This document shows positions 5,312 through 56,174 of a DNA stretch of 64,000 nucleotides, in pieces. Position numbers and translations under genes: made by a program. Origin of the DNA: Candidatus Margulisiibacteriota bacterium (GTDB taxonomy: Bacteria; Margulisbacteria; WOR-1; O2-12-FULL-45-9); assembly GCA_041658745.1 (NCBI GenBank), contig JBAZZP010000001.1, positions 165,434 through 229,433 on the forward strand, given 5' to 3'. The first letter of the stretch is position 1, and each line of letters opens with the position of its first letter. The notes beneath the pieces are model-generated. The model was given only the letters and a program-made list of their open reading frames with translations, was not told the origin of the DNA and did no database searches.

Positions 5312-5358
5312 CGTTCCCCTTTCTAATAACTATCGCAATGATTACACAGGTTATTCAA

Positions 5359-6462: not shown

Positions 6463-6483
6463 TCTTCTTCTCCAATTAATTAT

Positions 6484-8443: not shown

Positions 8444-8489
8444 GTCGTTATAATTATACAGTAAATAGTCTTAAAATGTTTGGGGAATT

Positions 8490-13863: not shown

Positions 13864-14893
13864 TTTTCATTTTAATAATTTCTCTGCTTCTAGCAGACAT
13901 TCTATCTCGCAACTCCTTATTTCGCAACAAATGGATAATTCTTTCCGCGAGTATCACTGGATTGCTAACCGGCACAATATAGCCATCAGTCCCATCCTTA
14001 ACCCACAAATTATTTTCTCCGGAATCGGTAATAACAACCGGCAAGCCACAGGCCATGGCTTCGGCCGTACTGGCAGCAATGCCAGCATCAGAAAGCGAGG
14101 TCGAAACATAAAGATCAGCGGCCTGAAGATAGGCAGGCAGTTCATCATTTTTCAACATACCGATAAATCTAACGTTTTGTCCCACCATTAGCTTTCCAAC
14201 CAATGCCTTTAAGGATTGATCTAGTGAACCAGTCCCAGCCAAAACAAATGCTGCGTCCGGAAATTCTTTCAGCACAAACGGGATAGCGCCAATTAACGAA
14301 GAAACATCATAGATTGGCTCAAAACTTCTCAGACTTATTATCATTGGGGCCGCAAGGATTTTTAATTTTTCTCTCACATGACCACAGTTATTACCTACAC
14401 AAAACTTATGAGTATCAATTCCAAAATTTATAATCCGTATTTTCTTTTTACTTATTCCTAATTTCAACATGGTTTTTAACATATGCTCAGCATCACAGGT
14501 CACCAAAGCAGCTCGGGATAAAATAAATTTGAGCATTAGCTTCCTTAGCCAGTACTTAATTCCCAAAATCACATCTGACCCCCAAACGGTAATAACCTGT
14601 GGATAGCCCCATCCCGCAATTGAACCCACTACCCCATAAGTTCCAGCCGAATGGATATGAATAATATCAGGATTAATTTCTTTTATTAGCTTTCTGGTTT
14701 TTACAATGGCATGCAATACGGTTTTAATATTTACCGGAGAGGTTATAATTTCATGATAATTTGCAAATTCAATCTTACCAAAGTTTGATGGGGCTAAAGA
14801 TATCCATGACACAGCATGCCCTTTATTTGCAAAAAAATTAATCCATTTGTAACTATGAATTGAATTTGAACCGGCTAAAAAACAAATCTTCAT
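13796..14893 (-). CDS. GT4 family glycosyltransferase
   Basis: 365 aa. STSLSDAGIAASTAEAMACGLPVVITDSGEN is the classic GT4 EX7E region. Confidence 0.8.
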   Translation of the reverse strand: MKICFLAGSNSIHSYKWINFFANKGHAVSWISLAPSNFGKIEFANYHEIITSPVNIKTVLHAIVKTRKLIKEINPDIIHIHSAGTYGVVGSIAGWGYPQVITVWGSDVILGIKYWLRKLMLKFILSRAALVTCDAEHMLKTMLKLGISKKKIRIINFGIDTHKFCVGNNCGHVREKLKILAAPMIISLRSFEPIYDVSSLIGAIPFVLKEFPDAAFVLAGTGSLDQSLKALVGKLMVGQNVRFIGMLKNDELPAYLQAADLYVSTSLSDAGIAASTAEAMACGLPVVITDSGENNLWVKDGTDGYIVPVSNPVILAERIIHLLRNKELRDRMSARSREIIKMKNDYWTEMEKMDKLYEVVFSVCR

Positions 14894-16155
14894 TATTTAT
14901 CTACCTCATCGACAACCATATTATTGCTTAATTGGTTGATTAATCCAAAAGGCATAATCATTATATATAAAAGCACAATATCTAAAATCGGAGCAACCAT
15001 TAGCCAGGCAAAAGACATAAAAATGGTTAACATAAGTAATATTGAATATTTACTTCTGGAAATTAACACCTTAATAAAGGCAAAAAGAAAACACACTGTT
15101 GTAAGCAGCATACCGATCAAGCCTGTATCAATCATTAAAGCCGCAAAAGCCGTACTTCTCTGTCCTAAAATCAGTTTATGGGAATACCACCCCTCTCCCA
15201 CTAAGGCTGAAACAATGTTATTATCCAACAGAACAAAGGCTCGCTTAAAATGTGAACCACGATCTTTATCCTGTTGCCCCGAAACAGCTTCGGTAGCTTG
15301 AATGCCAACCAAAAAATAATCAGTAAATGAATATTTTGAATACACTGTTAAAGTATTATTCCAACTAACAAGTATTATCGCCATTAAAAGGATTATGAGA
15401 ATTTCGCGCAGACGAATGCGGGGAAGATAAATAAACATAAGCCCAACAACTGCCAATATAACCATTCGGGAATCATAATAAAAACCAACGATTAAAGAGA
15501 TAAATGCAACTAAAAATACTAGTAATCTTGAAAACCAATTTTTTGCATTTTCGTTATAACATAAGACGGCTGTTATTGACATCAATACTGGAAAAACGGC
15601 AGCAGCAGAACCGGACCATTCGCTTCCTTGCGGCAGAAACCTATTTATCTTAAGAACAAATTCTGAATAGAACCCGTGAAAAAAATAGGTCAACATATAT
15701 AACAATCCAGAAATGGCAGTTATCATTGCTGCTTTATTACTAGATAAAACCATAAAATAGCGATTTGAGAGGATAAAGGGCATAATTCCTAATAGAAGGT
15801 AGTAGATAACAAAACGCATCATTCGAATATCTTCACTTATTATCACTCCCCGAATGCATTGAAACACCATATAAAAAGACATTAACAAAAAGATTATTAG
15901 GTGCAATTTATCAAAATTGCTTATTTTCTCTCTGATAAATGGAATGGCTCCAATAGAAAAAGCAAAAAGAATACCAAAAAAAATACAATCAACCAAGTAT
16001 TCATCGATAAGTGCGTATCCACCCAACATAATGCCTGAACCCAAAATACAAGCTGGAATAAGCATGTACCATAACATTTTAGGTTTCATTGCTCCAACAA
16101 AAAACAAGATTGGACCAAGAATAATAAACAAAAACACCAAAAAGGAATAAACCAT
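14893..16155 (-). CDS. polytopic membrane protein, Wzy-like O-antigen polymerase/ligase candidate
   Basis: 420 aa, 10 or more predicted TM segments with a larger loop near residues 290-330. Located between the GTs and the Wzx flippase. Confidence 0.45.
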   Translation of the reverse strand: MVYSFLVFLFIILGPILFFVGAMKPKMLWYMLIPACILGSGIMLGGYALIDEYLVDCIFFGILFAFSIGAIPFIREKISNFDKLHLIIFLLMSFYMVFQCIRGVIISEDIRMMRFVIYYLLLGIMPFILSNRYFMVLSSNKAAMITAISGLLYMLTYFFHGFYSEFVLKINRFLPQGSEWSGSAAAVFPVLMSITAVLCYNENAKNWFSRLLVFLVAFISLIVGFYYDSRMVILAVVGLMFIYLPRIRLREILIILLMAIILVSWNNTLTVYSKYSFTDYFLVGIQATEAVSGQQDKDRGSHFKRAFVLLDNNIVSALVGEGWYSHKLILGQRSTAFAALMIDTGLIGMLLTTVCFLFAFIKVLISRSKYSILLMLTIFMSFAWLMVAPILDIVLLYIMIMPFGLINQLSNNMVVDEVDK

Positions 16156-16168: not shown

Positions 16169-17839
16169 TTACTTATTTGTTACTTCATCAATTAATGCAA
16201 CTATTCTTTCGGTCGATCTTCCATCCAATTTATAACAATGATCCTGTACAAATTTCTCACGATTAGATTTCAACCTTTTTATAACTTCTTTATCACAAAA
16301 AACACTCTCAACCGCAACAATTAAGCCATTCTCATTATAGACCCCTAAAGCCACCCCTTCATCAACATAAGAGGCAAGATCTTTTTCCCCGCTTAAGTTT
16401 AGAATAATTAATGGTTTATTTAGAACGACAGCTTCTGTCCCTGTTGTTGAATATCGGGTAATAACTAGATCGGCAACAGCTATCAATTCAAAACTATTAG
16501 AATCTTTTACAATTGTAACCTTAACTTTATATTTTTTTGCATAACTTTCATAGATTGCCCCATCCTTTTCCCCGGGATGCAATTTTATTAATAATTGAAA
16601 ACTATCTTTTAAGGCAGCTAGTGTTTTAAAGACTTCCTTAATGTTTCTTTCATTTTCAACTTGTGATAAAGCATGGGTTTGGGTTGTCCAAACAACCAAT
16701 TTTTTTCCACACATCAATTTATATCGGATAAATATTTCTTTTCTTTTAGATTCTGGGTCTAATAAAGAGATGAAATCATAGCCCGCATTTCCCGTAACAA
16801 CAATACATTTTTCTGGATAATCACTAGTTTTTGTTAGATAATCCTTTTCAATCGGCCCATAAACAGCCGTAACGTCTGGAATAGGATAGTATGGAGAATA
16901 AACACTCCCATCAACCGAGATATCACCTGGATTGAATGTATATGCCTCATGAAAAGGGGCAATATTGCCATGCTGGATTGACAAAACCGGAACAGATTTT
17001 TGTTTGGCCGCAATCGTCAAGGCACTGGGCAATCCACCGTATTCACATTCAATTAAAACCAGATCAGGCTTTTCTACATCTATAATCTTTTCTGCTTGTC
17101 CGATATATTGCGCTATCCTTGAAAAACGACAGATAAAATAATATTCCAACTCTTTCTCAATGATTGGGAATAGATCTCTCCCCTTATACATCCACATCTT
17201 AGCAAATTGTTCATCAACTCTTAATTCTTTCCAAATATTACTAAAATACTTCTGTGCCTTATTCCTTTTCCACCAGATTTTCCAAGACCAATAGCTTTCA
17301 AATGCCCGATGAACAAAGAAAGCCCGAAAAATTCTTTTTTCTAACAAGACTTTTATGCCTGCATAATTTGGCCCAATTTGCCCACAAGTAGTTACGTTAT
17401 ATCGTTGATCGTTAAATAATCTACGTAAGATTGGGTGCAAAGCCATATTTTCCTTAACCATTTTTCGATTTGAAAGGGTCGTCACCTTTCCCCAGCGAAT
17501 ATTATAATCAGTGATTAAGACCTTCTTTTGCTTTGAAGATGATTGGTTGATATACGAAGCTCCAAAGATTCTCCCAATAAGGCACATTAGGACATCGTAA
17601 AACATACACATTAGATTAAAAATCCGTAGGTCGAAACGCAAATATATAGGTTGCGTTATTTTGTCAGTAGAAATTGCGGATTTTATACAATGGAATAGAT
17701 TAAAGCGGATAAACCACCAAAAACAAATCTCTTTATACGTAGTTTTTTGAATAATATTCTTACCATCACTAAATTTAATATGAGAAATACCTGATAATAA
17801 CTCAATAATATCCTTTGATATGGTATTTGATTCCTTCAC
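16169..17839 (-). CDS. HP-motif GT-B enzyme (TagF / KpsC-KpsS / bacterial sialyltransferase-like superfamily), paralog 1
   Basis: 556 aa. LIKLHPGEKD (HP motif) and DLVITRYSTTGTEAVVLNKP. Clear paralog of the adjacent gene (WWFIRFNLFH, SPYYPIPDVTAVYGP blocks shared). Confidence 0.5.
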   Translation of the reverse strand: MKESNTISKDIIELLSGISHIKFSDGKNIIQKTTYKEICFWWFIRFNLFHCIKSAISTDKITQPIYLRFDLRIFNLMCMFYDVLMCLIGRIFGASYINQSSSKQKKVLITDYNIRWGKVTTLSNRKMVKENMALHPILRRLFNDQRYNVTTCGQIGPNYAGIKVLLEKRIFRAFFVHRAFESYWSWKIWWKRNKAQKYFSNIWKELRVDEQFAKMWMYKGRDLFPIIEKELEYYFICRFSRIAQYIGQAEKIIDVEKPDLVLIECEYGGLPSALTIAAKQKSVPVLSIQHGNIAPFHEAYTFNPGDISVDGSVYSPYYPIPDVTAVYGPIEKDYLTKTSDYPEKCIVVTGNAGYDFISLLDPESKRKEIFIRYKLMCGKKLVVWTTQTHALSQVENERNIKEVFKTLAALKDSFQLLIKLHPGEKDGAIYESYAKKYKVKVTIVKDSNSFELIAVADLVITRYSTTGTEAVVLNKPLIILNLSGEKDLASYVDEGVALGVYNENGLIVAVESVFCDKEVIKRLKSNREKFVQDHCYKLDGRSTERIVALIDEVTNK

Positions 17840-17841
17840 TT

Positions 17842-19539
17842 TCAGACTCCTTGCCGACTTAACCCCAGCATTTCCTTTAACACCCCCACGACCCGCTGCG
17901 CTGCCAAACCATCAATTTTATAGCAATGGTTAAAAACAAATTGCCTGCGATGATCCTGCAATAATTGCCTGGTTCCGTTATCCCAAAGAGCGGATTTTAT
18001 TGCCGGTAAGAGGGCTTGGGGGACCTTAACTCCGATGGCAACTTTTTCATCCACATAAGAAGTCAAATCGTTTTCCCCGCTCAAATTAAGAATCAAGATG
18101 GGCTTATTTAAAATTAATGCTTCTGTACCAGTAGTTGAATGTTTGGTAACAACCAAATCAGCAGCATAAAGGACCTCAAATATATTGCGATTCTGAGTAA
18201 CAGCCGCTTTTACCCCATATTCTTGACAGGCATTTTGATAAAGAGCCATACTTTTTTCATGCGGGTGCATCTTTATTAACAATTCTACTTCACCTTGTAG
18301 AGATTGAACAGCTTCCATTACTGCGCGCAAAGTCGCTTTTTGTTCGCTAAGGGGGACAAAATGCATTTGGGTTGTCCAGACAATTATTTTTTTGTTGGAG
18401 GATAGATTAAAATCTCGCAAAATAGTTTCTCTGCAATAAATTTCCCCAACTTTGGCCAAAAAGTCGTAACGCGGATGGCCAGTAACCACCACTCTGTTTT
18501 CCGGGTAGACACTTACCTTGGTTAAGAATTCTTTTTCACAAGGCCCATAAACAGCCGTTATCTCTGGAATAGGATAAAAAGGGGATTTTACATCAGCATT
18601 TGGAGCAATGTCACCAGTCAAAAACATGTAGGCCTCATGAAAAGGGCTGATATTGCCATGCTGGATAGCTAAGGTAGAAATGCCCATCAGTTTGGCATTT
18701 ATAATTAACGAATGCGGAAAGCCTCCATACTCACAATCGATTAATATAGCAGCTGGGTTTTCGGCCAATAACAGATTTTTCGTCATAGCCAAATATTTCT
18801 TTACCCGTGGAAAACGATAATTGAAGCAAAACTCCAGTTCATCTTTTATATACGGCCATAGATTGAATCCATTAAACTGCCATAAATTAATAAAATTGGG
18901 ATCTTGGCATAGTTTAGCCCAAATATTAGAGAAATGTTTCTTTGCTTCTTGCCCTTCTTGCCAAACCCTATTTGACCAAAACGCTTCTAGCGGCCGATGC
19001 ACGATCTCCTTTCGCCCAAACAACTTTTCAAACAAAACCCTAAACCCAAGAGCATGCATACCCACCTGACTACAGGTAACGACTTCAAACTCATTTTGTT
19101 TGATCAATTCCATAAAAACGGGATGTAAAAAGACATTCGATTTTACGGTTTGATTTGTCCCACTATCAAAAACATCGCCCCACCGCGAATTATAATCGGT
19201 AACTAATACTTTTGTTTTCTTTGATAAATTTTTTCTTTTTCTTCCAATAACTAATAAATTACACATCAAAGCAAAAGAAACATCATATATAAGACTAAAA
19301 GGCTCACGTAATTTAGCCAGCATTCTCTGTTTTAAAGTTATCTTAGAAGGCTTATCAGTGGAAACTATTGATTTAATGGCATGGAACAAATTAAAGCGAA
19401 TAAACCACCAATAGGAAATCTGTTGAAAAGTAGTTATTTCAATCAAAGATTGGCCATTTTCTAATTTAGTTTTGGCTATTTTATCCAATAGACCAATCAA
19501 ATCTTGTGACAAAGCAGCCCTATTTATAGTACTGTTCAT
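17842..19539 (-). CDS. HP-motif GT-B enzyme (TagF / KpsC-KpsS / sialyltransferase-like), paralog 2
   Basis: 565 aa. LIKMHPHEKS, DLVVTKHSTTGTEALILNKP. Shares the WWFIRFNLFH and SPFYPIPEITAVYGP blocks with paralog 1. Confidence 0.5.
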   Translation of the reverse strand: MNSTINRAALSQDLIGLLDKIAKTKLENGQSLIEITTFQQISYWWFIRFNLFHAIKSIVSTDKPSKITLKQRMLAKLREPFSLIYDVSFALMCNLLVIGRKRKNLSKKTKVLVTDYNSRWGDVFDSGTNQTVKSNVFLHPVFMELIKQNEFEVVTCSQVGMHALGFRVLFEKLFGRKEIVHRPLEAFWSNRVWQEGQEAKKHFSNIWAKLCQDPNFINLWQFNGFNLWPYIKDELEFCFNYRFPRVKKYLAMTKNLLLAENPAAILIDCEYGGFPHSLIINAKLMGISTLAIQHGNISPFHEAYMFLTGDIAPNADVKSPFYPIPEITAVYGPCEKEFLTKVSVYPENRVVVTGHPRYDFLAKVGEIYCRETILRDFNLSSNKKIIVWTTQMHFVPLSEQKATLRAVMEAVQSLQGEVELLIKMHPHEKSMALYQNACQEYGVKAAVTQNRNIFEVLYAADLVVTKHSTTGTEALILNKPILILNLSGENDLTSYVDEKVAIGVKVPQALLPAIKSALWDNGTRQLLQDHRRQFVFNHCYKIDGLAAQRVVGVLKEMLGLSRQGV

Positions 19540-21014
19540 ACAGATGATCCTGCTTTTCTAATAAACCCTCTTAACACAGCCAGATATTTTTGCGGAGAAA
19601 AATAAGGAAAAGAGATAAAACAGAGAAACAACAAAAACAATAGTATCTTACACACGAAATACAGCAGCATACTAAGTTTGATCCCGATAAAAATATAATA
19701 TAGACCCGCGAAAAGAAAGAAAATGCTAAACGTATAAGTGAGATATTTTAGTGGGGTAACATGCATTTTCAAAACATGTTTGACTACAAACCAAGTTAAT
19801 AAAAACATTATTAAATATGAAAGGGTTGAGGTATAAGCAGCTGCCATGTACCCATACAGCGGAATAAAAAATATATTCAAAACAATACTTATTAAGCCGC
19901 AAGCAATAGAGATGACCGAACCGTAAATCATTTGTTTTGAATAACCGATATATCTAGCGTAAATTGTAAACATGGCAAAAAAAATATTGCCCATTACAAT
20001 CCAAGGTATAATTGGGATACCGGCACAATATTTTCTACCAGCCAAAACCATTACGATTTCAGGAGAAAAGATCATTAGTAAAAACGCAAATACAACGATT
20101 AAAATAAATGCTTTTTTTACCAATCGGTCTAAACGGACGTTTTCCCCAATATTTAAAAAATGAAAAAAATCAGGGATCAAAGCTGAGTTAACGGAAAGGA
20201 TAAATGACTGCAGAATCATACCAATGTTGCTACCAAGACTGTAAATGCCAGCCGATGCAGCGCCCTGCACGTTGTTGATAATTATTCTATCCGCCTGCGC
20301 CAATATGACCCCACTTAAAGTGTAAGGGATTAGAGGTAATCCCAAATACAAAGCATATTTTAGATATTCAAATTTAAATTCAAAAGAAACATATTTCTTA
20401 AGGAGTTTCAAGCAATATGTCGAAACAATAATCCCACCAATAATCTGCCCCCAAATAAGCCCTAAATAACGCGCTTGCACAAAGACAAAAACCAATGCAA
20501 TACTACAACTAACTGCCAAAAAGGCCTTTGAGAAATCAAGCGCCACTAACAATTGGCTCTTGCGCTCTGCCTCAAGAATTTGCCGATTAATCGAATCAAT
20601 TAACGTCAATAAAATAAAAACCATCAAAGGGAAAAAGAGACCAACTGGAATTCCCAACCAACTTGACAAGTTATCTCGAAATATATAGGCGATAATTGCA
20701 TTGATTACAAACAATGGGAAAAAGGCAATGACAATACTGCTGATAAACCCGCCAATGTCCTTTTTGTCTTCATAATAATACCTGCCGACCGAAGTAAACA
20801 AATTAAAGGTCATTAAGACTGAAAGAATGCTTGCGGCTGAACCATACAAATTAACTATTCCATATTCATTTAAGGTTAACATCCTAGTAAAAATTGGAAT
20901 AGAAATAACACTTAAGGCTTTGATCGCCAAGTTGCCACCAAAATAATTTCTAGAATGTTTCAGCGTTGAGCCGATATCATCGGATTTTATTTTATTCAGG
21001 AAGCGTTTGATCAT
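19536..21014 (-). CDS. wzx: Wzx-type oligosaccharide flippase (MOP superfamily)
   Basis: About 12 TM segments, typical Wzx N-terminus (GGNLAIKALSVISIPIFTRMLTLNEYG). The ORF track starts at 21092. I place the start at the ATG 21014..21012, which forms an ATGA overlap with the upstream stop. Confidence 0.7.
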   Translation of the reverse strand: MIKRFLNKIKSDDIGSTLKHSRNYFGGNLAIKALSVISIPIFTRMLTLNEYGIVNLYGSAASILSVLMTFNLFTSVGRYYYEDKKDIGGFISSIVIAFFPLFVINAIIAYIFRDNLSSWLGIPVGLFFPLMVFILLTLIDSINRQILEAERKSQLLVALDFSKAFLAVSCSIALVFVFVQARYLGLIWGQIIGGIIVSTYCLKLLKKYVSFEFKFEYLKYALYLGLPLIPYTLSGVILAQADRIIINNVQGAASAGIYSLGSNIGMILQSFILSVNSALIPDFFHFLNIGENVRLDRLVKKAFILIVVFAFLLMIFSPEIVMVLAGRKYCAGIPIIPWIVMGNIFFAMFTIYARYIGYSKQMIYGSVISIACGLISIVLNIFFIPLYGYMAAAYTSTLSYLIMFLLTWFVVKHVLKMHVTPLKYLTYTFSIFFLFAGLYYIFIGIKLSMLLYFVCKILLFLLFLCFISFPYFSPQKYLAVLRGFIRKAGSSV

Positions 21015-23083
21015 GCAGTTATATCTTTGGATGGGAAAAATAGATCTGTATATCTTTGAGTAACTACAGCTTCGCCCTTTTTGGCACAACATATTTTCAA
21101 ATAACCGTTGCCATCATCTTCAATTTTCAATTCTTTTCCGCCTTGCGTGCAATGAAGACCAAAATCAAAACTATATTTGATGATATGATCTCCATCACTA
21201 GCAAAAGTAATCTTCAGTGAACTTGTCCCAGCTTCAACCTTGGCAAAGGGGAAAGACTTTTCGTTGATAAAGGGTATAGCATAAAGAACAACTTTAAAAT
21301 CAGCCAATTTACTCTCATAATCTTCAATGAATGGCTCTTCACCTAATGCAATAAATCCAAATTCATCTAATTTTTTCTTGAATGGCTCTGTAAAAGCAAC
21401 TATATGGGTTATGCCCGAAGCAAGAATTGCTTGTTTTAGTTCGTCATAAGAAGAAGCACAATTAAAATAGGCACAAGTTTTTTCATACAAATCAAATTTA
21501 ATAAGTTCAACCATGGCGGAATTAAATATTTCACAGTTTTTATCAGCCAGATACAATGAAAAATACTCCGACAAAGTCTCAGAATGGATATTTCTCCCAC
21601 TTTTAACTGATCCTAGCTCAAAACCAACCCGATCAACCGCGGATAATTTGCCAAACAAATTATTTGCCTTTTTGATCAAGTCTTCTCGGGTGTTTAATTT
21701 GAACTTATAATAATAGTTATCCTCATGATTTTCCCAGCTTAGAAGATATGGAGGTAAAAACAAAAAGAATAATAACAATACGAGCGAAATCATATTAAAA
21801 GCATAAGCTAAGCATAAAATACCAACAACTGTCTGAAACATTCTGACAGTGTAAAGCGAGAAAAGCACTTTAATTTTAGCATTAATGTAACTTATGATCA
21901 CCGGACACATCGCCATGGCCAATACAACCAGGCTTCTAGAATAAAAAAATAGTGATAGTACAAATAACAAATAAAGCAAAAACTGCAGTAGGCGCAAATA
22001 GCCAAAACTATATTTGGAAGACCAGCCTTTATTAATCATTTTCATTCTGGTCATTTTTCTTATCTGCATTACAAATGGAACGATCCAACAACTAGCAACA
22101 AAAAAAGCAATAATTCCTGCTGGAAATAGATCAAAAAACTTTCCATGCAAAAGCGCATAGACGGCTATAAAAAAAACAAGTAAGCTCGCTACTCCAACAT
22201 GAGAAAGAACAAGTAAGCCCCAAAAAAGACCAGCAATATAGATATTTCCATATATAAATAAAACAAAACCGGAAAGGCCAAGCCCCCATGCTAAAATCTC
22301 ATAAACTCCTAATGAGGCATGTTCCCAGATAGTATTAGCTAACATAAAAAAGAAAAAGCAAGCGGCAATTTGCCATGGGGATATCAAGGCTATCTTATAG
22401 TATAGGGCAAACAAGCTAACAAACAGCAAAAGAGCTCCGAATAAAAAAGTAAGCCTGAATTTAAATTGCTTTATCATAAAGATTGAGAATGGAAAATGAT
22501 ATAACGAAACCGGAAAACCCATATATTCATTAAATGCATAGCCAAACAAACCATGCCTTTTTGCCCTATTTGCATATAAATACCAATAAATTACCCCAGA
22601 GAGACGGCCATTCATTCCAAAGCCAATAAAAGGCTTATCATCCTTTTCTCGTGGAAGGATAAAATTAGATAAAACCTCTCTTATTAAAAAAAGTGGTGTT
22701 AACAAGATAGCAATAAACGGGGAAAGCAACAAAGAAAAGGTATCCCAAAGCGCATTTAAAAAGCCATAAGACACATTGCCAATCTTAAAAGAAGTAAAGC
22801 ATAAAACAGATAAAAAATATAAGGCCAATTTAAATAACTTCGACAAAGGCTGATCTACCACACACAGCATTGATTTGGTTTTTAATTTACGGGCATTAAT
22901 TATTATAGATTTAAATTTGTTAATAGCATTTCCACCAGCCAGAGAAAAGATATTGTCAGGGCTGAATGCATCAGTGGAAAAGGAGGTTTTCCCGCAAATC
23001 AAGAGATCATCTCGAGAAAATTGCCCCTCATTCAACTTGTTTAAAAAATAAGAATCGGAAGCTAATTTAATTACGATATTCAT
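21011..23083 (-). CDS. large polytopic membrane protein with about 230-aa C-terminal soluble domain (candidate GT-C-type transferase)
   Basis: 690 aa. More than 10 hydrophobic helices across residues 90-450, then a hydrophilic C-terminal domain. No motif I can name with confidence. Confidence 0.35.
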   Translation of the reverse strand: MNIVIKLASDSYFLNKLNEGQFSRDDLLICGKTSFSTDAFSPDNIFSLAGGNAINKFKSIIINARKLKTKSMLCVVDQPLSKLFKLALYFLSVLCFTSFKIGNVSYGFLNALWDTFSLLLSPFIAILLTPLFLIREVLSNFILPREKDDKPFIGFGMNGRLSGVIYWYLYANRAKRHGLFGYAFNEYMGFPVSLYHFPFSIFMIKQFKFRLTFLFGALLLFVSLFALYYKIALISPWQIAACFFFFMLANTIWEHASLGVYEILAWGLGLSGFVLFIYGNIYIAGLFWGLLVLSHVGVASLLVFFIAVYALLHGKFFDLFPAGIIAFFVASCWIVPFVMQIRKMTRMKMINKGWSSKYSFGYLRLLQFLLYLLFVLSLFFYSRSLVVLAMAMCPVIISYINAKIKVLFSLYTVRMFQTVVGILCLAYAFNMISLVLLLFFLFLPPYLLSWENHEDNYYYKFKLNTREDLIKKANNLFGKLSAVDRVGFELGSVKSGRNIHSETLSEYFSLYLADKNCEIFNSAMVELIKFDLYEKTCAYFNCASSYDELKQAILASGITHIVAFTEPFKKKLDEFGFIALGEEPFIEDYESKLADFKVVLYAIPFINEKSFPFAKVEAGTSSLKITFASDGDHIIKYSFDFGLHCTQGGKELKIEDDGNGYLKICCAKKGEAVVTQRYTDLFFPSKDITA

Positions 23084-29448: not shown

Positions 29449-30516
29449 TTAATCACAAGAAATATTTTTTAACACTTTTTGGTATTCCCCCCATTGCCCA
29501 ATATCCACCCAAGCACCCTCGCTTACCGGATATACTCCAATCTGCCCCTTTTCTTCCTTCACCTTTGAAATTAAGTCCGTGATGTGAAAGAGTTTGCCTT
29601 CCGGGATTAAATCAATCACCCTTTTATTTATAACATAAAGTCCCGTATTAACCAAAAAGTCAAATTCGGGTTTTTCCACTAATTCCTCCAGTTTTCCGCC
29701 ATTGCTTACTTTCATTACACCATAAGGAACCTTATAGTTCTGAACAGAACCAACCAAGGTAATATCGTTTTTATCTTTTTGATGAAAATTTAGTAAATCA
29801 TCATAATGGGCGTCAATCATAATATCACAATTTGAAACAAAAAAATCATCAGAAAGAATTTTATTTATCAATTTAACACCGCCTACTGTTCCCAGCGGAT
29901 CTTTTTCCCAATAATAGGTAAATATATACCCAGTATCAATATTATCGAGAAAAGATTTAATCATTTCGCCTTTATAATTTAGAATTAAATCAAACTCCCT
30001 GAAACCATATTTGGCAAATTTGTCCATTATTATTTCAATTATGGCTTTCTCCCCAATGGGGACAAGTGCTTTAGGAAATATTTTGGTAAAAGGGGATAAG
30101 CGGGTACCTTTGCCACCCGTCATAATCACGACCGAAATTGCCTTCTTGGCTACTGCACGTTTGTGGCTTCCGTCAAACACTACATCCCAAAATAATATAT
30201 CTTTTATACATTGCTGTTCATCAACAACTGGAATAGATTCGATTTCACCTTCAAACATCTTGTCCTTAACTGCTGAGAGGTCATAATTTTGCTTAAAACT
30301 TGTCGGCGTTCTATTCATAATAGACGCAACACTGCAGTTCAAATCGCCATTATTTAAGATCCATCTTCTAATGTCCCCATCCGAAACCGAACCCAAAAGC
30401 TGGTTTTCTTTCCCAACAATAAAAACAATTTTCTTAGAATTCTTATCCATGAGGCGCATGGCCTCTTTTACGCTAATATCATCCTTTGCAAGATATTTAT
30501 CAAGATTATCTATCAT
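29449..30516 (-). CDS. CBS-domain sugar-phosphate nucleotidyltransferase (PtmE-like, putative GlcN/GlcNAc-1-P guanylyl/cytidylyl-transferase)
   Basis: 355 aa. N-terminal CBS pair, then VVIMTGGKGTRLSPFTKIFPKALVPIG (GxGTRL nucleotidyltransferase motif). Confidence 0.75.
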   Translation of the reverse strand: MIDNLDKYLAKDDISVKEAMRLMDKNSKKIVFIVGKENQLLGSVSDGDIRRWILNNGDLNCSVASIMNRTPTSFKQNYDLSAVKDKMFEGEIESIPVVDEQQCIKDILFWDVVFDGSHKRAVAKKAISVVIMTGGKGTRLSPFTKIFPKALVPIGEKAIIEIIMDKFAKYGFREFDLILNYKGEMIKSFLDNIDTGYIFTYYWEKDPLGTVGGVKLINKILSDDFFVSNCDIMIDAHYDDLLNFHQKDKNDITLVGSVQNYKVPYGVMKVSNGGKLEELVEKPEFDFLVNTGLYVINKRVIDLIPEGKLFHITDLISKVKEEKGQIGVYPVSEGAWVDIGQWGEYQKVLKNISCD

Positions 30517-31150
30517 TCGTTATTCTCCTGGCAGGAACGCCAGCAACTCGAAAATTTTCAGCAACATCCTTAATTACTACAGAACCGGCACCAATTAGGG
30601 CATTTTCCCCAATTTTAATTCCCTGGATGATATGTGTCCCCAAACCGACAAAAGCATTAGCACCAATTTGCACCCTGCCTCCCAAAACAACTCCCGGAGA
30701 AACGATAGCATTCTGAGAAACTAGGCAATCATGCTCAATAATGGCTCCGGTATTAATTATGACATTATCCTTTATTTGTGCGGAAGGATTTATAATTGCT
30801 CCTGCACCAACAAAAATCCCTTTTCCAAGAGTAGAATTTTGGGCAATAATGGCTGTTGGATGAATAATATTTACAAGTTCCAGCCCGGCACTTTTCATCT
30901 TTTCAATAACGCTTAATCTAACACTCATTTCGCCCGTACTCCCCACAGTACAAATAGCTTTACAAATCCCCTTTTTTATTAGGTCTGAAAAATCAACATC
31001 TTTTCCTAAAAAAGGTATTTTCCCAAAGATTAATCCACGGTCTTCAATATCAACATATCCGGCCAAATGATACTCGCCAGACATTTCCGCCGTATCAGCC
31101 ACCACCCTTGCATGATCTCCCCCCCCAACTAATATAATTTTTTCTTTCAT
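30506..31150 (-). CDS. NeuD/PglD/LegH-family sugar N-acetyltransferase
   Basis: 214 aa. Rossmann-like N-terminal domain (KIILVGGGDHARVV) plus C-terminal hexapeptide repeats. Confidence 0.75.
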   Translation of the reverse strand: MKEKIILVGGGDHARVVADTAEMSGEYHLAGYVDIEDRGLIFGKIPFLGKDVDFSDLIKKGICKAICTVGSTGEMSVRLSVIEKMKSAGLELVNIIHPTAIIAQNSTLGKGIFVGAGAIINPSAQIKDNVIINTGAIIEHDCLVSQNAIVSPGVVLGGRVQIGANAFVGLGTHIIQGIKIGENALIGAGSVVIKDVAENFRVAGVPARRITNDR

Positions 31151-32328
31151 TTTAAATCAATAAACCTCTTTTTAATATTTGAAAAATCATAAGTTTTAAG
31201 CTTATTTTTAATTTTACTGCTCACATTGCCATGCCAAAAAGGATTGGTAAGACCAGCTATTGATTTAATAAACTGCGGTGATTGGGCTTTTGCAACGCCT
31301 TTTAAAATTGACTCCCATGAAGCAGCAACATCGATAACATTGGCTGGTTTTAACCGTCCTTTTTGCCGATCTCCTACATTTACGACCGGGAGGCGAAAAG
31401 ATGCCGCCTCAATAATGCCAGAAGAAGAATTTCCCACCATCATGCCGACATGTTGCATTAGAGAAAAATAGCGCAATTGGCCAAGGGATTGGAAGCCTTT
31501 TGCTAAACCATGCGATGATTGAATATATTTATCAATCGCTCTAATGATACTATCATTCTCATTATCCGCATTGGGCATGGTAAAAATAATTCTCATCCCA
31601 CTCTTTGAGAGTGCCAAAAGCAGGTTATCAATTTGGACCTTCGCACTTCCCTTTTCCAAAGTAACAGGATGAAAAGTGACTAAAGCCACATCTTGCCCCA
31701 AAGTAAAACCTAATTGATTTTCAAGCTCCGTTTTTGACAATAGTTTTAACTTTTTGAGATTATCAAGGCCGGGCGCCCCAAAGTTAAATACCCTGGTCGG
31801 ATCTTCCCCCATTTGGATCACTCGTTGGCCATATTCTGCATGCGAAACAAAATGGAGATAGGCCATTTTTGTAATGGCATGGCGAATAGAATCGTCATAA
31901 GCCCCTTCGGTAATTTCGCCGCCGTGAATATGGACAATCGGGATTCTAAAAAGCATAGCAGCAACCGAAGCAGCTAAAATCTCAAAGCGATCACCCAAAA
32001 CTACCACCACGTCAGGCTTCAGCTTTTTAAATACCTTCCCAAAACCAGAAACGGCTAGACCGACCGAATGGGTAATAGCTTCATCGCTATCCGAATTTAA
32101 TGCCATCGGCACTTTCGCGCTAATTTTGATTCCGTCCTTTAATATTTCCTTATATGTCAGTCCAAATTTAGGCTCAAGATGCATTCCGGCAACCACCGCC
32201 TGCAAAATTAATTCCCGGTCATTTTTGATCGCATGCATTAAGCCGGATAATATCCCATATTCTGCCCGAGAACCAGTAACCACACATATTTTTCTATTGC
32301 TTTTTAGCATATTTTTGGATAACTCCAA
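31147..32328 (-). CDS. UDP/GDP-N-acetylglucosamine 2-epimerase (hydrolysing), NeuC/LegG-like
   Basis: 393 aa. KICVVTGSRAEYG, VVVLGDRFEILAA, IVHIHGGE. Confidence 0.85.
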   Translation of the reverse strand: MELSKNMLKSNRKICVVTGSRAEYGILSGLMHAIKNDRELILQAVVAGMHLEPKFGLTYKEILKDGIKISAKVPMALNSDSDEAITHSVGLAVSGFGKVFKKLKPDVVVVLGDRFEILAASVAAMLFRIPIVHIHGGEITEGAYDDSIRHAITKMAYLHFVSHAEYGQRVIQMGEDPTRVFNFGAPGLDNLKKLKLLSKTELENQLGFTLGQDVALVTFHPVTLEKGSAKVQIDNLLLALSKSGMRIIFTMPNADNENDSIIRAIDKYIQSSHGLAKGFQSLGQLRYFSLMQHVGMMVGNSSSGIIEAASFRLPVVNVGDRQKGRLKPANVIDVAASWESILKGVAKAQSPQFIKSIAGLTNPFWHGNVSSKIKNKLKTYDFSNIKKRFIDLK

Positions 32329-33472
32329 CCACCCTTTTAATATCTTTTTCGCTCAAATTAATGCTGCATGGCAAATTTAACACTTGATTGTAATATTTTT
32401 CTGCTTTTTCAATTTTATAAGATTGATTCTTTTTATAGGGCTTTTGTTTATGGTTTAAATACCACAGAGGTCGAGCTTGAATACCATGATTATTCAATGC
32501 TTTCATAAGCTCAAAATTGGTTTTTCCGTAAATCTTTGCATCGATTATTAAAGAATAAAACCAAAAATTGCTGGAAGCATAATCTGGCTCATTAATCATT
32601 TGAAGACCATCAATTTCCCCAAGCATTTGCTCATACAATTTGAAGTTTTTTCTTTTAATTTTAATATAAGCAGATAACCTTTCTAGTTGTGCAACGCCCA
32701 TAGCCGCTTGGACATTGGTTAAGCGATAATTATAGCCAATTTCATTATGGATATATTTGATTGCACTATCTTTGGCTTGTGTAGTTAGATAGCGCGCCTT
32801 TTTAGCTAATTGGGGATCATTAGTTACCAGCATTCCTCCTCCACCAGTAGTAATAATCTTATTGCCATTAAAAGAAAAACAACCAATCTGCCCAACAGCT
32901 CCAGTCATTTTGTTTTTAAACTTGCCATTTACAAAAAATGACCCGAGAGATTCAGTAGCATCTTCAATAATAGTTAAATTGTATTTCTTTGCTAGCCCAA
33001 TTAAAGCATTCATATCAACCGGAGAGCCAAAGATATGCACAGGAATAATAGCTTTAACCGATCTTTTGCTTCTTTTATTAATTAGCTGGCCTTTTTTAAA
33101 GACACACTCGTTTTTGATAAATTGTTCAACTTTTCCAACATCAATATTCAAGTAATCATCGCAATCCATAAATACGGGTTCAGCTCCAACATATTTAATA
33201 GTATTAACAGGTGCAATAAAGGTTAATGTTGGGACAAGCACTTCATCGTGCAGGCCAACACCAGAAATAAGCAAGCTAATATGAAGGGCGGCAGTCCCAT
33301 TAACACATGCCACGGCATATTTGGTTCCAACATAAGCCGCCAGCTGATCTTCAAATTTATCGACATATTTTCCAACCGACGACACCCAGCCGCTGTCTAG
33401 ACAATCTTTAATATAGCGCCATTCATTGCCGCCGATGCAAGGCTCGGATAAAGGAATTTTAATATCAGACAT
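32294..33472 (-). CDS. DegT-family sugar aminotransferase (LegC/PseC-like)
   Basis: 392 aa. PLP lysine in SFNGNKIITTGGGGML. Confidence 0.85.
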   Translation of the reverse strand: MSDIKIPLSEPCIGGNEWRYIKDCLDSGWVSSVGKYVDKFEDQLAAYVGTKYAVACVNGTAALHISLLISGVGLHDEVLVPTLTFIAPVNTIKYVGAEPVFMDCDDYLNIDVGKVEQFIKNECVFKKGQLINKRSKRSVKAIIPVHIFGSPVDMNALIGLAKKYNLTIIEDATESLGSFFVNGKFKNKMTGAVGQIGCFSFNGNKIITTGGGGMLVTNDPQLAKKARYLTTQAKDSAIKYIHNEIGYNYRLTNVQAAMGVAQLERLSAYIKIKRKNFKLYEQMLGEIDGLQMINEPDYASSNFWFYSLIIDAKIYGKTNFELMKALNNHGIQARPLWYLNHKQKPYKKNQSYKIEKAEKYYNQVLNLPCSINLSEKDIKRVVGVIQKYAKKQ

Positions 33473-34463
33473 TATAGATTCCTGCCTTATAGCAATGCTG
33501 ATTATTTTTCATCCAGTTTATGGTTTCAATTAATCCTTGCTCTAAGTTATAATTCGGGCTCCATTTAGTCATAGCGATGAGCTTTTTGTTACAGCCAAGA
33601 AGCCTTTTTACTTCACTTTTTGATGGGCGAATTCTTTGCTTATCAGTAATAATTTTGATATTGGCCTTGGGAGAAATTAAAGCAATTAGTTTTTGCGCTA
33701 GTTCGCCAATACTTATATCTTGCCCAGAGCATATATTAATTTCTTCCCCTATCGTATTTTTTGATTTTGCAATTTCAATAAAGCCCAAACAAGTATCCTT
33801 AACATAATTCAGGTCTCTCCTGGGAGAAAGATCTCCCAACTTTATTGTTCTTTGACCGGATAATATTTGACTAATTATCGTCGGGATAACCGCCCGAGCC
33901 GATTGTCTTGGACCATAGGTATTAAAAGGACGAACAATTGTAACCGGAAGATTGAACGAACGATAAAAGGACTCTGCAATCCGATCTGCTCCTATTTTGG
34001 TCGCACTATAAGGGGACTGAGCCTGCATGGGATGTTTTTCGTCTATTGGAACGTACAATGCCGTTCCATAGACCTCGGAAGTCGAAGTAACAAGCACTCT
34101 TTCAATGGATAAATCTCTGGCTGCCTGAAGGACATTCAACGTTCCTTTAATATTTGTATCAACGTAATTGTCTGGCGAATGGTATGAATATGGAATTCCA
34201 ATCAAAGCAGCTAGATGAAAAACAACATCTACTCCCTTGATTGCCTCTCTTACTCCGTTATGATCTCGCACGTCTCCTGTGAAAACTTCAATTTGATTGA
34301 GCTTTTCTTTTGGGAGGGTATCAAGCCAACCCCAACTATTAAAAGAATTATAATAACAAAAGGCCTTCACTTTGGCTTTAGCATCTACTAAAGCTTCAAC
34401 CAAATGACTGCCAATAAATCCATCTGCGCCAGTTACTAACACAGTTTTATTTTTTAAATTCAT
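33465..34463 (-). CDS. extended-SDR NDP-sugar 4,6-dehydratase/epimerase (LegB/FnlA-like)
   Basis: 332 aa. VLVTGADGFIGSHL, YSATKIGAD (YxxxK). Confidence 0.75.
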   Translation of the reverse strand: MNLKNKTVLVTGADGFIGSHLVEALVDAKAKVKAFCYYNSFNSWGWLDTLPKEKLNQIEVFTGDVRDHNGVREAIKGVDVVFHLAALIGIPYSYHSPDNYVDTNIKGTLNVLQAARDLSIERVLVTSTSEVYGTALYVPIDEKHPMQAQSPYSATKIGADRIAESFYRSFNLPVTIVRPFNTYGPRQSARAVIPTIISQILSGQRTIKLGDLSPRRDLNYVKDTCLGFIEIAKSKNTIGEEINICSGQDISIGELAQKLIALISPKANIKIITDKQRIRPSKSEVKRLLGCNKKLIAMTKWSPNYNLEQGLIETINWMKNNQHCYKAGIYNV

Positions 34464-34465
34464 AA

Positions 34466-34927
34466 TTAATTAAGCCCCTCATTAAAAATCCAAGCGTGGT
34501 CACAAAAGGCATCCCCTTTTACGATTTCATGCGATCTTATAAATTCAACTCCCGGCAATACTTTTTCCGTAAAAGCCTTGTCGGACAAACAAAATGCAGA
34601 TGCATATGCTGCAAGGCCGTATTGGGTCATAAGCTCAGCAAAAGGACACCGGTCATAGCGCACCTCTAATATATCCTTTTTTGAATTAATAATCTTTATA
34701 TAATCGGTTTTGCCGGCATAATCCAAATAGTGCTTTCTAAATTTATCAAAGCGCGCTTGCGATTTAGGAGCGGTAGCTGATAAGACCAACTTGTAATATT
34801 CAATCATATAATTGGCAAAGCCATCTGCAGCAATCCGAAGGGCTTCTTCCTGACCAAATGATTGTTGCAAGGCTTTTATGAAACCAACACTAATTAAATG
34901 CTTGTTCGTTGTTATATCAGCTACCAC
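34466..34927 (-). CDS. hypothetical small protein (conserved-cysteine region CPFAELM...AFCLSD)
   Basis: 153 aa. Translationally coupled between the dehydratase and the amidotransferase. Function unknown. Confidence 0.3.
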   Translation of the reverse strand: MVADITTNKHLISVGFIKALQQSFGQEEALRIAADGFANYMIEYYKLVLSATAPKSQARFDKFRKHYLDYAGKTDYIKIINSKKDILEVRYDRCPFAELMTQYGLAAYASAFCLSDKAFTEKVLPGVEFIRSHEIVKGDAFCDHAWIFNEGLN

Positions 34928-34948
34928 TTCTCACTCCTAATTAATCAA

Positions 34949-36064
34949 TCATCGGCATGGTTCTTTTAAGCGCCAAACCCCATTTCTCTTCTCTACGATA
35001 TCTCGATTAGCAAATTTTTCGGCAATGGCCCAAAATTCGGCTTCGCTATATCCGCAGAAATCAATAAAATCCTTCAGCATTTTCTTATCTAGCTTATATT
35101 CTTCTTCGTTAACTATTTTAACGGCTTCGTCCCTTGTCATTTTACCTTCTCGAATATAAATGCTTAGATAATCTGTGGCTAACCAATGCCCAAATTTTAA
35201 GAATTTCATCCAGGTATGGGTCAAATAGCCAATCGTATCTATCTGATCATACTGATTCCAGGTTCCTTCCCGATGCCATTCACCAGTATCGTCCAGATCC
35301 TTAAAACCAACGGAGCGGGCAAACTCCCAATTTTTGATACTGCTCCATTGAACAAAGTAACTCAAAAAGGTGGGATCAAGTTTTGCCTTAGAAATTGCTT
35401 CGGCGTTGGGATAAATTGCTGATTGGACATCCTTCCATTCCAGATCATTGTCAAACCATTCTTCCCAAGCCACAGGTTTTACCACATCGTTTTTAATTTG
35501 ATCTAGGGCACTGGGGGTTTCTTTTGAACCTAGGGCTCCGCCCCTTTCGTAATTTGTATTCTCCCCATAAATAATAAACGGGATGTTTAGTTTGATGGCC
35601 GCTTGCAAAGGATATGCATAGATTGCCATGTCAAAATACCAAGTAGGCGATCCCAACTTTTCAAAAGCCTTCCTAAACATTTTTTTACAGACCTGGGGAT
35701 TAAGCGACAAAGAATGGGCATCAAGACCAAAATGCGACCTAATATTGTCCCAATTGTACCTTCCCGTTTGGGTCCAACTTACGTTATCAACCATGACAAT
35801 CAATGGATTCATCTTCATTTTTTCTTTGAAGACATAGGCCTGATAATGACTGTCTTTGCCGGCGCTAGCAGTAATGATACAATCATAGTAATTACCATTT
35901 GAACCGCGATATTTATTGCATAATTCTTCTAATTCCTGCCATCTTTTTTTCCAATCAGTTAACTTTTTTTTCTCATGGTTGAGGCAGGGAAAGCAAATCC
36001 CTTCATCATTAAACTTGATCCCCGGTCGAGTGTCCGGCGTAACACATTTTTTACAATAACGCAT
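34949..36064 (-). CDS. N-acetyl sugar amidotransferase (WbpG/PseA/WbuX family, PP-loop)
   Basis: The ATG at 36064 gives an N-terminus MRYCKKCVTPDTRPGI, typical of this family, and is preceded by AAGGAGG with a 5-nt spacer. PP-loop ITASAGKDS. The track ORF extends 14 codons upstream. Confidence 0.7.
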   Translation of the reverse strand: MRYCKKCVTPDTRPGIKFNDEGICFPCLNHEKKKLTDWKKRWQELEELCNKYRGSNGNYYDCIITASAGKDSHYQAYVFKEKMKMNPLIVMVDNVSWTQTGRYNWDNIRSHFGLDAHSLSLNPQVCKKMFRKAFEKLGSPTWYFDMAIYAYPLQAAIKLNIPFIIYGENTNYERGGALGSKETPSALDQIKNDVVKPVAWEEWFDNDLEWKDVQSAIYPNAEAISKAKLDPTFLSYFVQWSSIKNWEFARSVGFKDLDDTGEWHREGTWNQYDQIDTIGYLTHTWMKFLKFGHWLATDYLSIYIREGKMTRDEAVKIVNEEEYKLDKKMLKDFIDFCGYSEAEFWAIAEKFANRDIVEKRNGVWRLKEPCR

Positions 36065-36069
36065 AAAAA

Positions 36070-36076
36070 CCTCCTT
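36070..36076 (-). promoter_or_regulatory. Shine-Dalgarno AAGGAGG for amidotransferase start at 36064
   Basis: Minus-strand AAGGAGGTTTTTATG, with perfect 5-nt spacing. Confidence 0.55.
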
Positions 36077-36189
36077 AAATTCATCTAAAATATATCTATT
36101 TGACAAAATGAGAGAAAATTATTTCGCCAAACAGCAACACCTTAGCTAAACGGGAACGCCTATTCATTCCTAAAATCACCTCCTTCTTC

Positions 36190-41690: not shown

Positions 41691-41693
41691 GAC

Positions 41694-51555: not shown

Positions 51556-51566
51556 GTTTTTCCTCC

Positions 51567-52697: not shown

Positions 52698-52701
52698 TTA
52701 A

Positions 52702-54080: not shown

Positions 54081-54095
54081 TGGTCTCCTAGCCCC

Positions 54096-55178: not shown

Positions 55179-55202
55179 TTTATACCTCCAAATATAGATA
55201 GA

Positions 55203-56171: not shown

Positions 56172-56174
56172 ACT

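Follow-up and report, generated by a model that had tools for sequence, protein, structure and literature searches.

A tandem pair of GT-B proteins in a surface-polysaccharide locus of Candidatus Margulisiibacteriota: candidate CMP-nonulosonate transferases

INTRODUCTION

The DNA analyzed here is a window of 64 kb (the whole stretch, 64,000 nt) from a metagenome-assembled genome of Candidatus Margulisiibacteriota, and all of it belongs to one surface-polysaccharide locus on the minus strand. Two adjacent genes of this locus, termed A and B, encode proteins that are predicted to adopt the GT-B glycosyltransferase (GT) fold. We consider both proteins to be candidate transferases for nonulosonic acids that are activated by cytidine monophosphate (CMP).

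Nonulosonic acids are nine-carbon sugars that resemble sialic acid. Knowledge of their transferases is scarce (PMC5420450). As of 2018, no enzyme that transfers legionaminic acid (Leg) for protein glycosylation had been identified in any organism, Archaea included (PMC6137143), and a Leg transferase of the bacterial cell surface had likewise not been identified (PMC7439481). A review from 2024 on N-glycosylation in Archaea does not mention one either. Transferases for Leg and for pseudaminic acid (Pse) are wanted for the chemoenzymatic synthesis of Leg and Pse glycoconjugates.

RESULTS

A and B are translationally coupled, diverged paralogs

A sequence-only reading made before this analysis described two adjacent paralogs of about 560 amino acids at positions 16169-19539, and the two open reading frames (ORFs) occupy exactly this interval (Table 1; all coordinates are within the window). 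The same reading considered the paralogs to be clearly diverged, which agrees with a BLASTP alignment that has 236 identities in 549 positions (43%), 65% positives, one 1-residue gap and an E value of 1e-175. Every conserved block quoted in it is found in both proteins. These are WWFIRFNLFH, a PIP block that reads SPYYPIPDVTAVYGP in A and SPFYPIPEITAVYGP in B, a TG block (VTGNAGYDF in A, VTGHPRYDF in B), an HP block (LIKLHP in A, LIKMHP in B), and a D block (DLVITRYSTTGTEA in A, DLVVTKHSTTGTEA in B). Locally concentrated divergence was sought by region, and identity amounts to 38% for the N-terminal region, 46% for the N-domain and 42% for the C-domain. Divergence is therefore spread evenly, whereas in the Tannerella Pse/Leg pair the N-terminus alone differs.

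The ATG of B overlaps the stop codon of the upstream flippase gene (ATGA). The GTG start codon of A lies 2 nt past the TGA of B, with an AAGGAG Shine-Dalgarno sequence ∼8 nt upstream of it, and the gene downstream of A begins after 13 nt. A and B are translationally coupled. Among 138 full-length family representatives (median identity to B, 28%), A and B are mutually closest, sharing 43% identity versus at most 38% with any other representative. No adjacent full-length pair of family members was found in ∼24 related loci elsewhere. Since the two proteins are mutually closest and no pair occurs in the other loci sampled, the A/B pair is a lineage-specific tandem duplication.

The A/B family is a sister of BFO_1060 glycosyltransferases

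When 18,950 NCBIfam models were scanned, the best match for both proteins was NF046086, the BFO_1060 family glycosyltransferase (A, 102.7 bits, E 2.3e-29; B, 86.7 bits, E 1.6e-24). The second model was TIGR04396, a surface carbohydrate biosynthesis protein (A, 68.5 bits; B, 79.6 bits). NF046086 also ranks first in five more full-length members, and in a further one, P0008, TIGR04396 comes first and BFO_1060 second. Six further members of the family, together with a shorter relative, score between 79 and 104 bits with NF046086. Because A, B and the tested relatives all stay below the curated cut-off of this model, we place them in a sister family rather than among the BFO_1060 proteins themselves.

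A bona fide BFO_1060 member, P0160 (257 bits, cut-off 200), provides a direct comparison. The profile of the A/B family retrieves P0160 from a set of 5.8 billion sequences (E 1e-17). Moreover, hhalign aligns the profile with P0160 at a probability of 99.15% (E 4e-19) over 290 columns that cover the C-domain in full and the N-domain in part. The aligned positions include PRxD (AGCPRFD in P0160), K-x-HP-x-E (IKVHPAE), TT-x-EA (CTTATEA) and DG...R. Judged by these profile comparisons, the A/B family is a sister of BFO_1060 inside the TagF-like superfamily of CMP-releasing enzymes.

Other curated models give far lower scores. The teichoic-acid equivalog models TarB and TarL reach 23.5 bits (cut-off 500) and 15.8 bits (cut-off 1000), and the epimerase equivalogs wecB (TIGR00236) and NeuC (TIGR03568) reach 27 bits (cut-off 210) and 14 bits (cut-off 236). 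The murG model scores 12 bits, and Glyco_transf_4 matches A only, at 23 bits and below its cut-off.

Three overlapping Pfam families match the proteins in the C-terminal half only. Glyphos_transf (PF04464) exceeds its gathering score of 22.1 bits in both (A, 39.4 bits; B, 48.2 bits), covering model positions 144-367 of 367. Epimerase_2 (PF02350) is also above its gathering score in both, at model positions 143-346 only, and Capsule_synth (PF05159) is marginal (25 and 23 bits, gathering score 20) around the HP motif. The sequence-only reading regarded the HP and D blocks as common to TagF, KpsC/KpsS and the bacterial sialyltransferases, and its interpretation is supported in part. No GT38, GT42, GT52, GT80 or Maf model of Pfam matches A or B, even at E ≤ 10.

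The Pfam matches also explain why the public names of the two proteins contradict each other. The NCBI name of A (MFA5839215.1) is UDP-N-acetylglucosamine 2-epimerase, and that of B is CDP-glycerol glycerophosphotransferase family protein (UDP and CDP, uridine and cytidine diphosphate). Since B is 43% identical to A and still receives another automatic name, each name simply tracks the top Pfam hit. Both names are probably wrong. The family is an uncharacterised sister of known CMP-dependent GT-B enzymes that is labelled inconsistently in public databases.

Conserved residues include a TagF-type histidine and a candidate for the second

The signature of the family is WW...E...QHG...PIPD...TGxPRxD...KxHPxE...D...ST..EA. 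In B numbering, each residue of Q293-H294-G295 is conserved in 97% of the 138 representatives, and the K-x-HP motif is conserved to a similar degree (K423, 99%; H425, 98%; P426, 97%). D359 is present in 100%, E270 in 90% and P-x-P-D326 in ∼80%, and D461, S468, T469 and E473 are each conserved in at least 94%. Further signature positions are W44-W45, E428, A474, K479, D543-G544 and R549. The TGxPRxD motif is less strict, with P in 120 and R in 116 of the 138 representatives, such that ∼15% of members do not have P or R. A keeps the other invariant residues of the family (E266, Q289-H290-G291, D355, K419, H421-P422, D457, S464-T465 and E469). An outcome in which A and B matched only epimerase-like or unrelated GT-B families, or in which the catalytic histidine was missing, had been named beforehand as speaking against a transferase role. 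Instead, the best model is BFO_1060, and the HP and QHG histidines are both kept.

A single-sequence search against Protein Data Bank (PDB) sequences gave nothing significant, and the family profile alone gave a match. In the alignment with TarL, the KMHP, TGVPRTD and DLLISDYSSLIYEY (the DLLISDYSS block) segments of TarL are matched with the family. The DSGG-QEEA block of epimerases also aligns with the DLVVTKHSTTGTEA block of B.

Two histidines are essential in TarL. H300, within W299-H300, serves as the base, and H433 touches the alpha-phosphate and promotes the departure of CMP (PMC10901376). Their TagF equivalents are H444 (the N-domain base) and H584 (alpha-phosphate). H425 of B and H421 of A, at a position that is 98% conserved, align with TarL H433 in KMHP. 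The distance between H294 and H425 is 131 residues, versus 133 between TarL H300 and H433. When a sub-profile of the N-domain (residues 225-362) was compared with PDB sequences, no significant TarL alignment was obtained and only an epimerase was matched (E 0.07). We infer the equivalence of H294 and TarL H300 from motif and spacing only, because the N-domain does not align significantly with that of TarL. In the weak epimerase alignment, E270 falls at the position of the Asp of HGD and Q293 replaces the Glu of EAG. The position of QHG is taken by EAG in epimerases, as far as this weak alignment shows, and by TEG in P0160, where hhalign leaves a gap. The A/B family would therefore combine a BFO_1060-like scaffold with a TagF-type histidine.

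Predicted structures have a GT-B fold and a helical N-terminal region

Confident GT-B models were predicted for both proteins, with a predicted local distance difference test score (pLDDT) of 88.5 and a predicted TM-score (pTM) of 0.87 for B, and values of 88.1 and 0.86 for A. The two models are alike. A helical N-terminal region of ∼108 residues, which contains a long hydrophobic helix as well as the conserved pair of W residues, is followed by the GT-B fold with a helical insertion at about residues 184-260 of the N-domain. The isoelectric point (pI) of both proteins is basic, at 9.1.

The N-terminal helix was considered as a conserved transmembrane anchor and this assignment was downgraded. 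The hydropathy value KD19 is 1.7-1.8 in A and B, and the family has a median of 1.40 with 33% of members reaching 1.6. Monotopic or amphipathic membrane association of the family is more likely. The homologue P0004 has a precomputed PF27859 match, and this Pfam family may describe the N-terminal region that is conserved among the relatives of A and B.

Family members recur beside nonulosonate genes

A word-indexed search recovered 11-15 relatives only, and an exhaustive profile search was made of 1.84 billion cluster representatives (clusters at 50% identity). It returned 24,618 matches at E ≤ 1e-3 and 2,537 at E ≤ 1e-30, and more than 150 cluster representatives match end to end below 1e-111. 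A scan of GTDB species representatives, seeded with a seven-sequence alignment, indicates that the family is mostly archaeal. Carriers include Methanogenium marinum DSM 15558, Methanoculleus and other Methanomicrobiales, Heimdall-, Woese- and Nanoarchaeota, and Thermoplasmatota. A few uncultured bacterial lineages also carry the family (WOR-3, Phycisphaerae and Dehalococcoidia).

Synteny was examined in 25 distinct family loci of any length, mostly archaeal. NeuB is encoded in 12 of these, a CTP_transf_3-type synthetase in 11, and either gene in 13. Where the full 10 kb is available on both sides, NeuB is found in five of six loci. A 10-kb criterion undercounts, as the nearest NeuB gene of the window itself is 16.6 kb away from the pair. 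Four proteins (P0007, P0008, P0010 and P0160) have NeuB and further genes of nonulosonate synthesis as direct neighbors. A CTP_transf_3 cytidylyltransferase lies near P0008, P0010 and P0160, and a NeuC-type epimerase near P0007, P0008 and P0160. The neighbors of relatives on long contigs variously encode a CMP-synthetase, a NeuC-type epimerase, an aminotransferase or a dehydratase. CDP-polyol synthesis genes (TagD, TarI/IspD) were found in none of the annotated related loci.

Genes for uronic-acid synthesis and for amidotransferases recur beside family members as well. Asparagine-synthase-type amidotransferases, nucleoside diphosphate (NDP)-sugar dehydrogenases and GFO-type oxidoreductases are seen repeatedly (loci L004, L021, L022 and L029, plus L028, which lies beside the BFO_1060 member). 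These genes are consistent with (amidated) acetamido-uronic acids as acceptor sugars, by analogy with Tannerella forsythia.

A divergent synthase (NeuB2) and a CMP-synthetase recur as a pair near family members. The pair spans 37250-39000 in the window, 5247-6976 in locus L007 and 5447-7116 in locus L017. Compared with the window, the synthetase is 46% identical in a WOR-3 bacterium, and in an archaeon NeuB2 is 43% and the synthetase 38% identical. This recurrence suggests that NeuB2, the CMP-synthetase and a family member form a conserved three-gene module.

On one archaeal-looking contig (L001, region 7760-11620, with TFIIB and SUI1 genes on the contig), a family member is immediately downstream of a gene for the oligosaccharyltransferase STT3/AglB and upstream of a NeuB/NeuC/DegT block. 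A second relative on this contig, of 383 amino acids and N-terminally shorter, is 8 kb off.

The pair lies between a flippase gene and a gene for a polytopic protein

A Wzx-type flippase gene is immediately upstream of B, and the gene downstream of A encodes a protein with 11 hydrophobic segments (Table 1). Neither this 420-residue protein nor the 690-residue polytopic protein encoded upstream of Wzx has a Pfam or NCBIfam match. Both are candidates for Wzy, a ligase or other glycan-processing proteins. The ORF for the 690-residue protein extends 82 nt past the annotated Wzx start, and the flippase matches Polysacc_synt from residue 51 onward. The true Wzx start is therefore probably further downstream.

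The sequence-only reading had pointed to three NeuB-type synthases and a CMP-synthetase in the context of the pair. All four are indeed on the same strand, though 16.6 to 40 kb upstream. The genes of the Leg-type block match their NCBIfam models above cut-off (LegB, 503 bits; LegC, 502; NeuC, 473; NeuD, 206; NeuB, 498; WbuX, 328). Also encoded in the window are a Wza-like exporter, Wzz, a block for a formamido and methyl sugar derived from guanosine diphosphate (GDP)-mannose, and tailoring enzymes. Besides A and B, its transferases comprise three GT2 enzymes, two GT4 enzymes and an initiating enzyme of the PglC type. Within the 64 kb there is no TagD, TarI/IspD, Maf, GT38, GT42, GT52 or GT80 enzyme, and no other transferase for a CMP donor.

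Table 1. Genes, blocks and motifs of the 64-kb window (residue numbers are those of the protein named)
Feature	Position	Strand	Description
Paralog A	16169..17839	(-)	556 amino acids, GTG start
Paralog B	17842..19539	(-)	565 amino acids, ATG start
B IQHG	18655..18666	(-)	Residues 292-295, N-domain; H294 is the candidate general base (TagF/TarL W-H position)
A IQHG	16967..16978	(-)	Residues 288-291, with H290; invariant in the family alignment
B VTGHPRYD	18463..18486	(-)	Residues 352-359; TG-x-PR-x-D at the domain junction
A VTGNAGYD	16775..16798	(-)	Residues 348-355; Ala-Gly replaces the Pro-Arg of the family
B IKMHPHE	18256..18276	(-)	Residues 422-428; K-x-HP-x-E (K423, H425, P426, E428), C-terminal nucleotide-binding domain
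A IKLHPGE	16568..16588	(-)	Residues 418-424 (H421, P422)
B DLVVTKHSTTGTEA	18118..18159	(-)	Residues 461-474; D461, S468, T469, E473, nucleotide-binding domain
A DLVITRYSTTGTEA	16430..16471	(-)	Residues 457-470
420-amino-acid protein	14893..16155	(-)	11 hydrophobic segments; 13 nt downstream of A; Wzy-/ligase-like by position only
Wzx-type flippase	19536..21092	(-)	Polysacc_synt, Pfam 66 bits; 12 hydrophobic segments; immediately upstream of B
690-amino-acid membrane protein	21011-23083		∼14 hydrophobic segments; upstream of Wzx
Legionaminic-acid-type block	29449..37215	(-)	PtmE-like nucleotidyltransferase, NeuD/LegH, NeuC/LegG, LegC, LegB, ATC_hydrolase-like ORF, WbuX, NeuB1/LegI
NeuB1	36190-37215	(-)	
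CTP_transf_3 cytidylyltransferase	37250..37984	(-)	NeuA/KdsB type; the sole one in the window; presumed source of the CMP donor
NeuB2	37981..39000	(-)	Divergent synthase adjoining the CMP-synthetase; NeuB_NnaB 227 bits, below cut-off
WbpA/B/E/D-like block	39006-43025		Diacetamido-uronic acid
NeuB3	58507..59376	(-)	289 amino acids, NeuB domain only; Pfam NeuB 266 bits; 40% identical to NeuB1

DISCUSSION

Genomic context favors a CMP-nonulosonate donor

Release of CMP is common to TagF-like enzymes and nonulosonate transferases, and as a result the motifs shared by A and B do not reveal which donor is used. What discriminates is the genomic context, and it favors CMP-nonulosonates. Considering homology, synteny, exclusion, predicted structure and placement together, we estimate a probability of roughly 0.6 that A and B are CMP-nonulosonate transferases. 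The sequence-only reading had proposed them as prime candidates to add two different keto-deoxy acids. The transferase role is favored by the present evidence, and a difference in donor is one of the differences proposed between the paralogs.

A number of observations weigh against this assignment. Neither A (102.7 bits) nor B (86.7 bits) reaches the curated NF046086 cut-off of 200 bits, and TIGR04396 matches only the C-terminal part and misses its cut-off of 125. The best solved-structure match of the family profile is a ribitol-phosphate polymerase, TarL (E 8.5e-9). At the base position the residue is that of QHG, and it differs from TEG in the BFO_1060 member P0160. A does not have the Pro-Arg of TGxPRxD. 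The nonulosonate genes of the window are distant from the pair, the nearest NeuB being 16.6 kb upstream and the rest extending to 40 kb. About half of the related loci have no NeuB within reach, including the Methanogenium marinum locus, which has full flanks, and the Altiarchaeales locus. The NeuB-less loci carry genes for a flippase, DegT, an asparagine-synthase-type amidotransferase, GT2 enzymes, UDP-N-acetylmannosaminuronic acid (ManNAcA) and membrane proteins. In Bacillus subtilis, SpsB, a TagB-like HP-motif protein encoded beside a Leg pathway, was dispensable for Leg transfer (PMC7439481). Finally, knock-out and mass spectrometry served to validate the Tannerella enzymes, and the A/B family is defined here by sequence and predicted structure.

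An alternative explanation is that A and B are TagF/TarL-like phosphotransferases, which would move a polyol-phosphate or sugar-phosphate from a CDP donor onto the repeat unit with H294 as the base and H425 at the alpha-phosphate. Several features fit this possibility. TarL is the top solved-structure match with three motif blocks aligned, the equivalent of TarL H433 and a candidate for the second TagF-type histidine are present at nearly the same spacing, the pI is basic, Glyphos_transf scores above its gathering threshold (39.4 and 48.2 bits, versus 22.1), and B carries the corresponding NCBI name. However, the Glyphos_transf match is confined to the nucleotide-binding half, and the teichoic-acid equivalogs score only 16-24 bits compared with 87-103 bits for BFO_1060. 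CDP-polyol genes could sit elsewhere in the genome, outside the 64-kb window, but TagD and TarI/IspD are missing from the annotated related loci as well, where NeuB- and NeuA-type genes recur instead. We regard a phosphotransferase function, the strongest of the alternatives, as unlikely. If A and B were ordinary GT-B enzymes that use an NDP-sugar of the locus, such as a UDP-(di)acetamido-uronic acid, then their likeness to the CMP family would come via the nucleotide-binding domain only. The recurring uronic-acid genes could be read in this way, but they are equally explained by synthesis of the acceptor, as in T. forsythia (PMC5420450). The K-x-HP histidine and PRxD are hallmarks common to the CMP-releasing TarL and BFO_1060, and no GT1, GT4 or GT28 model comes near the rank of BFO_1060. 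This makes an NDP-sugar donor very unlikely.

The epimerase name given to A raises the question of whether A, or both proteins, could be a UDP-N-acetylglucosamine 2-epimerase. This reading was rejected on the basis of curated equivalogs far below cut-off, motif differences and extra length, and we consider it scarcely credible. The wecB and NeuC models remain at 27 and 14 bits against cut-offs of 210 and 236, and a genuine NeuC (473 bits) is already encoded in the locus. In the sole N-domain alignment with epimerases, which is weak, the catalytic Glu that epimerases carry in EAG is matched by the Gln of QHG, which the A/B family keeps invariantly. The HP motif is H-x-N-P in epimerases, their TG block reads TGN-x-x-x-D without PRxD, and A and B are ∼180 residues longer. 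Another possibility, which is compatible with a CMP-nonulosonate transferase function, is that only B is fully competent. A would then be shifted in specificity or be a non-catalytic partner, either in a heteromer or as a second module like that of the two-module KpsC. The VTGNAGYD sequence of A, where 84-87% of the family has Pro-Arg, and the translational coupling of the genes point in this direction, as does the oligomeric state of TarL and TagF (PMC10901376). Still, A keeps all other invariant residues, its predicted fold is as confident as that of B, and ∼15% of the family likewise have no P or R. The loss of Pro-Arg could mean that A has an altered specificity or acts as a partner. A B-only activity seems quite improbable overall.

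A possible mechanism for A and B

As CMP-nonulosonate transferases, A and B would be membrane-associated GT-B enzymes acting at the cytoplasmic face. The C-terminal Rossmann domain would bind the CMP moiety of a CMP-nonulosonate, which would be made by the Leg-type pathway or the other NeuB enzymes of the locus and activated by its single NeuA-type synthetase. H425 of K-x-HP-x-E, judging by its alignment with TarL H433, would contact the phosphate and aid CMP departure. H294 of QHG, by motif position and spacing, would deprotonate a hydroxyl of the acceptor, the lipid-linked repeat unit, leading to a single-displacement attack on C2 of the nonulosonate. Gene order suggests that the adjacent Wzx would then flip the finished unit and that the adjacent Wzy-like protein would polymerise it.

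The acceptor may be a (di)acetamido-uronic acid. This proposal is made because genes for such sugars recur by family members and because ManNAcA is the acceptor of the Tannerella nonulosonate transferases (PMC5420450). The paralogs most likely differ in donor, acceptor or linkage, and such a difference would allow the locus to add two residues of nonulosonic acid or to form two linkages.

Relationship to known enzymes

When Tanf_01245 or TFUB4_00887 of T. forsythia is deleted, the S-layer O-glycan loses its terminal Pse or Leg derivative, and BFO_1060 is the T. forsythia protein that was aligned with both (PMC5420450). Like A and B, Tannerella BFO_1060 is a TagB-like GT-B protein whose gene is found beside NeuB, NeuC and a CMP-synthetase. 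A and B differ from it by being ∼110-120 residues longer, owing to the N-terminal WW helical region and the N-domain insertion, and by having QHG rather than TEG. Staphylococcus aureus TarL and Staphylococcus epidermidis TagF share with the A/B family a GT-B fold, the spacing of two histidines, TGxPRxD, a basic pI and, ahead of the GT-B domain, a helix that is hydrophobic or amphipathic. They release CMP, as A and B presumably do. In contrast to TarL and TagF, A and B have no Ig-like N-terminal domain, and their consistent neighbors are nonulosonate genes. TarL and TagF act as oligomers (PMC10901376). The retaining ulosonic-acid transferases KpsS/KpsC (GT107), WbbB (GT99), KpsS1 (GT118, Pse) and KrkA (GT140) use CMP-activated keto-deoxy donors, as is proposed for A and B. 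The bacterial sialyltransferases of GT38, GT52, GT80 and GT42 resemble A and B structurally no better than any generic GT-B protein. In a literature search on TIGR04396, LIC12162 and TagB-like nonulosonate transferases, nothing was found beyond the Tannerella and B. subtilis papers.

More tentatively, and at somewhat less than even odds, the A/B family could supply the Leg/Pse transferase that is missing for the N-glycans of Archaea and for several phyla of uncultured bacteria. In that case it would form a new GT family, duplicated here to serve two nonulosonates or two linkages. The family is a concrete candidate for Leg/Pse transfer with a defined signature, and with it an open question becomes a direct experiment.

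Additional sugar-modification genes in the window

Several other genes of the window deserve mention. NeuB3 lies in a region (50455-62707) that also encodes a HAD hydrolase, an acetolactate-synthase-like enzyme dependent on thiamine diphosphate (ThDP), a GFO oxidoreductase, two radical-SAM proteins, a C-methyltransferase, a DegT aminotransferase and a UbiA prenyltransferase. These genes may serve the synthesis of an unusual higher-carbon sugar. No second CMP-synthetase is seen. At 6484-8443, a pair resembling the alpha and beta subunits of pyruvate dehydrogenase E1 is found among sugar-tailoring genes (formyltransferase, aminotransferases). This pair may serve a ThDP-dependent branched-chain or acyl modification of a sugar and not central metabolism. 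Between LegB and the WbuX amidotransferase, an ORF for 153 amino acids (34466-34927) matches ATC_hydrolase (L-2-amino-thiazoline-4-carboxylic acid hydrolase).

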